A stretch of DNA of 46,405 nucleotides from a virus (IMGVR_UViG_2687453454_000004), one strand, 5' to 3'. Positions 30,932-31,984 are shown, counted from the stretch's first letter. Translations and numbers: made by a program. The notes: a model not told the origin generated them from the sequence alone.

Positions 30932-31984
30932 TTATTTCCCCACCAGCTCGTTTATCTCTTTCACTGTCTGGTTAAACCGCTCTGACTCAAGCTCAACACC
31001 TAAGGCCCGACGCCCCAGCGCCATTGCTGCTTTTATTGTGGAACCGGATCCCATAAAAAAATCAGCAACCAGATCACCAGGTCGACTACTGGCATTGATT
31101 ATTTGCCTGAGCATATCCGCCGGTTTCTCACACGGATGTTTCCCCGGGTAGAACTGAACGGGTTTATGCATCCAGACATCGGTATAAGGCACGGAGACTG
31201 ATACGGAGAAATAGCGCCGGAGAGATTTAAACTCATCCAGCAATTCAGAATATTTACGATTCAGTGAATCATAAGATGCCACCAGCTGGTGGTGTGGTTG
31301 TTCCAGTTGTTGTTCCTGAAACTTCTCTGCCGCTATACGGGAAAACAGTGCCTGTAACTTCCGATAGTCAGCCTCATTCGGCAACTGCCACTGACTGGCA
31401 CCAAACCAGTGGGAAACCATATTTTTCTTACCTGTGGCTTCGGCAATTTGTTTTGCCGTTATACCCAGTTCGGCACGAGCATCCCTGAAATACGATATCA
31501 GCGGTGCCATTATGTGCTGTTTGAGTTCCCTTTCTTTTGCTGCATAGCCGTCACTTTTGCCGCGATATGGCCCCTGGTAATGTTCAGCAAACAGAACGCG
31601 CTCTGTGGCAGGAAAATATGCGCGCAGACTTTCTTTATTACACCCATTCCAACGTCCGGACGGCTTCGCCCAGATGATATGGTTAAGCACGTTGAAACGT
31701 TCACGCATCATGATCTCAATATCAGATGCCAGGCGATGCCCACAGAACAGGTAAAGGCTTCCGGCAGGTTTTAACACCCGCCAGAACTGGGCCAGACAGT
31801 GGTCCAGCCACTTAAGGTAATCTTCGTCCCCTTTCCACTGATTGTCCCAGCCGTTGGGTTTCACCTTGAAGTACGGCGGATCGGTAACAATCAGGTCAAT
31901 GGAATCATCAGGCAGGGACTGAATAAAATGCAGGCAATCAGCGTTGATTAAATCAACACTGTTTATTTTTACAGTATTTTTCAT
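30932..31984 (-). CDS. Orphan DNA methyltransferase (beta-class N6A/N4C)
   Basis: 350 aa; DPPY motif near N-terminus (LIVTDPPYF), FFMGSGST AdoMet motif near C-terminus; no adjacent restriction gene. Confidence 0.85.

Follow-up and report, generated by a model that had tools for sequence, protein, structure and literature searches.

The closest described relatives of the gene studied here are M.EcoGI and M.EcoGII, beta-class DNA methyltransferases with a helical target-recognition domain that are encoded by prophages of Escherichia coli O104:H4 C227-11. M.EcoGII is non-specific, neither enzyme leaves a trace in the methylome of the lysogen, and both are harmful when expressed, with constitutive clones being slow-growing and unstable (PMC5778455); likewise, homologues in O111 lysogens gave no methylation signal (bioRxiv 10.1101/173336). 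An anti-restriction role has been proposed for this family (PMC5778455, PMC12707154), which includes a commercial enzyme widely used for chromatin footprinting and RNA tagging. In this work we analyzed a viral stretch of 46,405 nucleotides (nt), IMGVR_UViG_2687453454_000004 (hereafter, the window), identical to positions 4463483-4509887 of the E. coli strain YJ3 chromosome (NZ_AP023226.1), which was the source of the RefSeq annotation used. We focused on a DNA methyltransferase gene at 30932-31984 on the minus strand (hereafter, the methylase) and on the RNA leader that precedes it. The methylase gene itself is already known and catalogued in RefSeq, and, as judged by its sequence, it is not an unexplained orphan, since it belongs to the characterized M.EcoGII family of non-specific adenine methyltransferases. 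What is new is limited to the conserved folded RNA leader just 5' of it, which appears to be undescribed.

A previous annotation made from the DNA alone (the sequence-only reading) had placed an open reading frame (ORF) of a beta-class methyltransferase at these coordinates, and we recovered it exactly, on the minus strand and intact, running from ATG to TAA over 350 amino acids (aa) (RefSeq WP_000799656.1, 'DNA-methyltransferase'). Both motifs named in that reading are present: the catalytic DPPY at aa 35-38, and the FxGxG S-adenosylmethionine (AdoMet or SAM) motif as FMGSG at aa 310-314. Motif IV stands N-terminal to motif I with the target-recognition domain between them, which is the order that defines beta-class enzymes, and the match to the Pfam model N6_N4_Mtase (PF01555; E 2.2e-42, 145.9 bits against a 26.7-bit cut-off, aa 29-341), far beyond chance, agrees with this class. 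The PADLOC model MTase_II (PDLC03265) also matches the methylase, with an E-value of 3e-152. The ratio of non-synonymous to synonymous substitutions (dN/dS) was 0.10 in comparison to M.EcoGII and 0.06-0.09 in comparison to other homologues, and the protein is therefore under purifying selection.

When aligned with M.EcoGII (349 aa), the methylase is identical at 284 of 348 positions (82%), over its full length and gap-free, and this identity to a characterized enzyme settles its family. The M.EcoGII sequence was obtained from Supplementary Table S1 of PMC11551740 and checked against the E. coli O104:H4 gene (positions 4643-5692 of our locus L171), whose product agrees with the published sequence at 345 of 349 positions, the mismatches being apparent machine-reading errors of the supplement PDF. 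By part, identity amounts to 89% in the N-terminal catalytic region, 77% in the target-recognition domain (aa 160-237), 76% in the C-terminal region and 70-72% in the linkers. Further, the methylase is about 89% identical to Anc291 and 70% identical to SUPREM, two reconstructed relatives for which DNA methylation has been reported to be largely non-sequence-specific (PMC11551740); considering also the activity of M.EcoGII, tested non-specific enzymes are thus found on both sides of the window sequence. The segments of the subunit interface, aa 97-110 and 116-140, are fully conserved in M.EcoGII and the reconstructed ancestors (PMC11551740), and the methylase displays a single change in each with respect to M.EcoGII, N98 for S and V130 for I, with N98 being the state of Anc291 too; at position 179 it carries Q, as M.EcoGII does. 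Based on these comparisons, the methylase probably acts on adenine in any sequence context. As a related observation, the methylase of the Stx2c phage PV98-693 (positions 5001-6059 of locus L002) is a mosaic, in which the first 134 aa match the window protein at 99% and the target-recognition domain matches M.EcoGII at 92%, indicating recombination within the methylase gene.

The likeness to M.EcoGII extends to the locus, as both genes occupy the same place between Q and the lysis genes and are preceded by the 67-aa ORF and the leader. The M.EcoGII locus reads DUF968, Q, two reverse ORFs, an identical 67-aa ORF, leader, methylase, three tRNA genes, an esterase gene and holin, whereas in the window the holin directly follows the methylase. 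Other described enzymes resemble the methylase in part. Hia5, Hin1523 and Nma1821 are likewise prophage-borne, near non-specific N6-methyladenine (m6A) enzymes, presumed to act in anti-restriction and undetected in lysogens (PMC3299994); however, they display the alpha-class order (FxGxG before DPPY), are part of Mu-like elements, and have no relationship to the methylase outside the core. The catalytic Rossmann core and the motif order are shared with M.RsrI, M1.MboII, CcrM and M.HpyAVI/DpnA-type enzymes (PDB 8URK/9C3U), but M.RsrI/M1.MboII/CcrM-type enzymes act on defined sites, and the central ~165 residues of the methylase, comprising the target-recognition domain and the linkers, are unmatched: in phmmer comparisons to solved structures in the PDB (E 1e-24 to 1e-13), only the catalytic core was covered (aa 9-115 and 280-347), and the NCBIfam equivalogs YhdJ and CcrM scored well under their cut-offs (109.9 against 292 bits). 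The Dam-type methyltransferases of T4, T2 and P1 are phage-encoded orphan adenine methylases as well, linked to protection or packaging, although they are alpha-class, GATC-specific and encoded elsewhere in their genomes.

Genes of this kind are widespread and keep their position. The methylase DNA shows 100% identity to a gene annotated in Escherichia phage Ayreon as 'putative DNA methylase' and, among the matches listed, is 99% identical in mEp460 and cdtI, 98-99% in PhiR40_1 and 97% in SfV orf48; a match to the gene was found in 1264 of 5426 complete E. coli genomes. Placement between Q and the lysis cassette was observed in the window, in the M.EcoGII locus and in 14 further phage or prophage loci. 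The methylase lies directly 5' of the holin gene in SfV, cdtI, Ayreon, N15, PY54, KpLi5, PhiR46_1, Morganella phage IME1369_02, and the Vibrio and Aeromonas phages, with N15, PY54, KpLi5 and PhiR46_1 being linear-plasmid prophages; in Stx2a, Stx2c and Stx2e phages, it is found upstream of the stx genes plus the holin. Some deposited methylase starts look wrong: N15 gp52 (L010) is annotated 234 nt short, and the coding sequences of KpLi5 gp58 (L172) and PhiR46_1 (L176) run upstream into the leader RNA, which are likely start-site errors.

The 150-nt spacer 5' of the methylase, outside the interval covered by the sequence-only reading, is more conserved than the surrounding genes and contains a structured leader RNA of ~140 nt (31985-32121, minus strand) that ends at the methylase AUG. 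Its helices comprise P0 (UGGGC/GCCCA), closing around P1 (12 bp) and P2 (10 bp, with internal mismatches), followed by P3 (6 bp) and P4 (7 bp), the 3' arm of which ends 8 nt before the AUG. The leader has no Shine-Dalgarno sequence, and an in-frame UGA is located two codons before the AUG. A 47-nt core of the leader is identical in Morganella phage IME1369_02, a phage in which the methylase is 64% and the 67-aa ORF 47% identical. In comparison to M.EcoGII, the leader is 86% identical versus 53% at the 4-fold degenerate sites of the gene, and in comparison to Morganella these values are 74% versus 38%.

The structure of this leader is supported by covariation. From 80 loci of different Enterobacterales species, 63 distinct leaders were aligned with MAFFT, a structure-blind procedure; in this alignment 80.7% of the cells pair, versus at most 48% in slid controls, and 85 cells are compensatory versus 27.5±3.7 in shuffles, a count attained in 0 of 500 shuffles. 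A covariance model yielded exactly one strong match at each locus, in every case immediately 5' of the methylase gene and on its sense strand, with scores of 133 bits for M.EcoGII, 79 for PY54, 55 for N15, and 33-70 for KpLi5, PhiR46_1, and the Vibrio and Aeromonas phages; it also matched 70 of 100 further IMG/VR loci. Among 86 distinct leaders, compensatory changes were present at 37 of 40 pairs, with 509 compensatory cells versus 177±12.5 in shuffles and at most 113 in slid controls, and pairing reached 100% in P0, 82% in P1, 74% in P2, 89% in P3 and 61% in P4; this larger alignment was fitted to the covariance model and leans towards the proposed structure, a bias from which the MAFFT alignment is free. 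Furthermore, G-U pairs are frequent on the leader sense strand, which points to a sense-orientation RNA.

Searches of known RNA families did not recover the leader: Rfam 15 gave no relevant match in 31900-32250, even at E<=10, and the matches above gathering thresholds in the window were C4 and isrK, located elsewhere; the leader was not matched as a tRNA or transfer-messenger RNA, and a text search of the literature for its core sequence returned unrelated papers only. Leader copies do not exceed methylase copies (1192 versus 1466 places in E. coli genomes), and no excess was seen in phage records. No leader was found in the Xenorhabdus/Photorhabdus clade or at the loci of Erwinia endophytica (L117) and Pantoea (L130), and it is therefore not obligatory.

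Several other identities for this RNA were considered and rejected. The known prophage small RNAs AgvB, AsxR, StxS-type, Pas and STnc100 are located elsewhere in the Q-S interval, and none of the Rfam models of AgvB, AsxR, STnc100 and Esr41 matches the leader. Regarding a coding function, the window contains a frame of 33 codons that begins with an AUG at AAUGGGCGG and that stops at codon 8 (UUG UAG) in most relatives; N15 lacks that AUG, and the variation observed corresponds to compensatory pairing rather than codon wobble. For the enteric clade, the conserved in-frame UGA in UGAUCYAUG rules out that the leader encodes an N-terminal extension of the methylase. A kissing interaction between the P1 and P4 loops (UGGUAG/CUACCA in the window) is lost where the P1 loops read UUAGCG, UUGUCG or UUGACG. 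An antitermination element of the ops/JUMPstart-like or put-like type was likewise unsupported, as only UGGGCG is kept in comparison to the ops consensus, and the element is located downstream of tR' in N15 and PY54.

From its structure and position we infer a regulatory function for the leader. We lean, though not strongly, towards considering it a previously undescribed and widespread cis-regulatory RNA motif dedicated to M.EcoGII-family genes, which would gate the toxic methylase as a second, Mom-like lock. P0, P1 and P2 form a three-way junction whose nucleotides are conserved, and this junction may be in competition with an alternative fold, where UGGGC would pair with GCUCA (the P2 5' strand), and GRUCA with UGAUC beside the AUG. 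Single-sequence folding of the enteric leaders favours this alternative fold, with z-scores of -3.6 and -4.2. In 65 sequences, its ten pairs are possible in 96.4% of the cells versus at most 47% in slid controls, and these pairs vary only by wobble-compatible single changes. The pairing data are thus compatible with a putative two-state switch, which would gate translation of the methylase in response to a ligand (with SAM or S-adenosylhomocysteine, SAH, as obvious candidates), to the methylase itself, or to a phage protein.

A variant of this arrangement was found in the Vibrio and Aeromonas clades, where the AUG at the leader end starts a zinc-ribbon ORF of 36-62 aa, and not the methylase. 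This ORF corresponds to the Mu Com family (Pfam PF10122, 34.5 bits versus a 22.9-bit cut-off; PHROG 'gpCom control of modification'), examples between leader and methylase being located at 2362-2478 in L173, 1435-1623 in L174 and 1335-1460 in L182. In these phages, the same leader would gate a Mu Com-like activator instead. A hairpin read from the sequences, 3' of the Com-like ORF, pairs over the methylase GGAGG Shine-Dalgarno, so that ORF and hairpin together resemble Mu com-mom (PMC6483171, PMC3299994, and in part general background); moreover, com-like genes precede the alpha-class non-specific methylases Hin1523, Hia5 and Nma1821 (PMC3299994). Mu Mom, with its translational activator Com, offers a parallel as a toxic, broad-spectrum adenine-modifying enzyme that is silent in the lysogen, expressed late and controlled post-transcriptionally, although the two enzymes are unrelated by sequence and Mom produces acetamido-adenine instead of m6A. 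The Mu com-mom region does not contain the leader motif, and no Com ORF was found in the window at 31985-32134, where the leader abuts the AUG. The leader and its Com-like variant suggest, by analogy, that M.EcoGII-type methylases may be restrained at the post-transcriptional level in addition to being transcribed late.

Transcription of the methylase can be considered from the layout of the late region. On the minus strand the order is DUF968/HNH, Q, pR', tR', a moron ORF, a second terminator, the 67-aa ORF, leader, methylase, a terminator, holin, endolysin and Rz/Rz1, which bears out the earlier placement of the methylase upstream of the lysis genes, on the same strand, in a Q-dependent late unit. 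The antitermination protein Q is encoded at 33268-34020 (minus strand; Pfam Antiterm PF03589, E 4.4e-53; PHROG 127, E 1e-107; RefSeq). It is followed on the same strand by three elements read from the sequence: the late promoter pR', TTGCAT-17 nt-TAAGAT (33236-33208), which was absent from the automatic promoter scan at its threshold; a lambda-like early-transcribed pause element, AACGATGGG (33201-33193); and a tR'-like intrinsic terminator (33137-33161), with Ayreon and SfV carrying an annotated terminator at the corresponding site. We take this arrangement of promoter, pause and terminator to be the counterpart of lambda pR'/tR'. A second copy of the tR' hairpin, AACCCGCCACTGAGCGGGTTTTTT, identical to that at 33137-33161, is located at 32461-32484 (minus strand), 3' of the moron ORF, and a further intrinsic terminator, GGTGGCCACGTCAGGTGGCC then TTTTTATTT, occupies 30900-30928 (minus strand), between the methylase stop and the holin start, the same place at which terminators are annotated in Ayreon, SfV and N15. 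A consensus scan detected no sigma-70-like promoter in the 150 nt 5' of the methylase. The absence of a cognate restriction enzyme nearby, another statement of the earlier annotation, also stands, as no restriction endonuclease is present in the RefSeq annotation of the whole prophage and no PADLOC endonuclease match was obtained among the neighbouring or unnamed ORFs tested.

We consider it highly probable that the methylase is a non-specific phage enzyme of the M.EcoGII family, made late under Q, silent in the lysogen, and serving in anti-restriction. Its non-specific activity, late Q-dependent expression, lysogen silence and anti-restriction benefit are features that we infer from the characterized relatives and from the precedent of lambda. 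Transcripts starting at pR' would end at tR' in the lysogen and the enzyme would not be made, so that the pR'/tR' layout would explain the lysogen silence of the methylase. Upon induction, Q would render RNA polymerase terminator-resistant, allowing it to read past the three terminators, and the methylase would be made together with the lysis and morphogenesis proteins, heavily methylating the replicated phage DNA before packaging. The progeny DNA would then resist type I, II and III restriction enzymes blocked by m6A in the next host, with the structured leader probably adding post-transcriptional control of the toxic methylase.

The anti-restriction role offered by the sequence-only reading holds up in this scheme and matches the published account of the family (PMC5778455, PMC12707154). 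Conversely, the other role it had offered, an epigenetic self-marking with a heritable function in the lysogen, is unsupported, M.EcoGI, M.EcoGII and homologues being silent in lysogens. That interpretation is thus supported as essentially right, with two refinements, namely non-specific activity and lysogen silence, and both bear on the proposed checks: since adenine methylation is expected in any context, a missing methylation motif would not count against methylase function, and since the activity would be motif-free and silent in the lysogen, a comparison of lysogen and cured-strain methylomes is expected to be negative even with a fully active enzyme.

Several points weigh against the proposed role of the methylase in anti-restriction or against its details. 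The benefit for phage progeny is a published assumption rather than a demonstrated effect (PMC5778455, PMC12707154), and it would depend on the host, as m6A-dependent nucleases of the Mrr or DpnI-like type would attack hypermethylated DNA. Late Q-dependent expression is argued from gene order and from the precedent of lambda and Stx phages, and the lack of a Shine-Dalgarno sequence at the methylase start means that translation may be weak or conditional. Finally, 18% of the residues differ from M.EcoGII, rising to 23% in the target-recognition domain, and given these differences some sequence preference of the methylase is possible.

The last of these points leads to the view that the methylase could be a sequence-specific orphan such as Dam or CcrM, marking a defined motif and serving for epigenetic regulation or self-marking in the lysogen, which we regard as improbable. 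Most beta-class enzymes are sequence-specific, as are the nearest NCBIfam and PDB matches (YhdJ-type, CcrM, M.RsrI, M1.MboII); nevertheless, the YhdJ/CcrM-type matches reach the catalytic core only, far under the family cut-offs, and full-length matches that include the target-recognition domain came only from M.EcoGII-family members, the 23% divergence in that domain notwithstanding. Moreover, pR' and two terminators precede the gene, no promoter was matched in the 150 nt upstream of it, and its homologues are silent in lysogen methylomes. A little less probable again is that the main natural substrate would be RNA, or single-stranded or replicating nucleic acid, for example late phage or host transcripts or the methylase's own leader. 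M.EcoGII does methylate RNA and DNA:RNA hybrids in vitro, and a structured RNA precedes the gene; however, the reported initial velocity of M.EcoGII is ~90-fold lower on RNA (0.12, versus 11.12 on DNA), and the methylase carries Q179, whereas in SUPREM it is E179 that is important for RNA methylation activity.

The intact ORF, with all its motifs kept and a dN/dS of 0.06-0.10, makes it very improbable that the methylase is an inactive relic of a decaying prophage, even though the element hosting M.EcoGII was termed a cryptic prophage by Murray et al., the window prophage carries two tail-fibre pseudogene fragments, and the methylase start is devoid of a Shine-Dalgarno sequence. The same DNA is found, at 100% identity, in the viable phage Ayreon, isolated on E. 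coli K-12, and at 98-99% in mEp460, cdtI and PhiR40_1, and M.EcoGII, in a comparable context, is highly active once expressed (PMC5778455). The probability is close to negligible that the methylase provides the modification function of a restriction-modification system, or of another type of defence, carried by the prophage: PADLOC does place it with type II methyltransferase models, and other defence-type genes are present in the prophage (a UG17 reverse transcriptase and a SLATT protein), but an endonuclease partner was not found there, every relative examined has Q on one side of the gene and lysis genes on the other, and a non-specific methylase cannot tell self from non-self.

Placing the methylase in the M.EcoGII family has practical consequences, as annotation pipelines give it only the name 'DNA-methyltransferase' despite its matches in 1264 of 5426 complete E. 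coli genomes, and in methylome studies of lysogens it will go on being counted as 'inactive' as long as neither induced cells nor virions are sampled. If the leader does regulate the methylase, it would provide a testable explanation of how so dangerous an enzyme can first be silenced and later activated, could help to explain the silence of M.EcoGII, and would make a compact RNA element available for controlling an enzyme in wide biotechnological use.

The 67-aa ORF (32135-32338, minus strand; WP_000917724.1; PHROG 331, E 3e-26), found ahead of leader and methylase in enterobacterial phages, may encode a winged-helix protein; an identical protein is encoded upstream of M.EcoGII, and a tblastn search found the ORF in 55 phage records, ~150 nt 5' of the methylase wherever both coordinates were listed. 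Its Pfam MarR/TrmB matches are weak (E 0.05-0.1), and an AlphaFold2 model made without an alignment shows three helices at a predicted local distance difference test score of 57. Between the two copies of the tR' hairpin lies a lipoprotein-like moron ORF of 141 aa (32562-32987, minus strand; PHROG 4748, E 7.5e-91), which is present in Ayreon and the Stx2c phages and missing from SfV and the M.EcoGII locus, and which looks like an insertion flanked by a duplicated terminator. The DUF968/HNH protein (34034-35023, minus strand) is a common lambdoid gene, also present in relatives. The lysis cassette, on the same strand, comprises a P21-type holin (30649-30864; Pfam Phage_holin_2_1, E 3.6e-35; RefSeq essD), whose start is 67 nt downstream of the methylase, an endolysin (30152-30649; Pfam Phage_lysozyme, E 1.8e-45; RefSeq rrrD), Rz (29688-30155; Pfam Phage_lysis, E 8.6e-29), and the Rz1 lipoprotein embedded in Rz (29750-29935), identified by translation.

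Elsewhere in the window, the insertion of the lambdoid prophage at dusA is seen from dusA (542-1579), near the integrase gene (1668-2765), and from a short duplicated dusA 5' fragment at the opposite end (45231-45335). The host-range region may have undergone some decay or rearrangement, as suggested by two fragments of tail-fibre pseudogenes (5309-5443 and 8276-9253). Next to the integrase, the plus strand encodes at 3297-5196 a reverse transcriptase together with a SLATT-domain protein (PADLOC RTasSLATT, E 1.5e-56; RT_UG17, E 1.1e-158), a candidate DRT-type anti-phage defence pair on the prophage. At 38395-38583 on the minus strand, an Rfam C4 antisense RNA (82.8 bits) and isrK (59 bits) are adjacent and overlap an 'ash family protein' ORF; as judged by these matches, this lambdoid prophage carries a C4 module of the P1/P7 type for immunity or antirepressor control. 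At the far prophage end (43989-44977, minus strand), a Panacea-domain protein and an adjacent hypothetical ORF of 128 aa may constitute a toxin-antitoxin pair.

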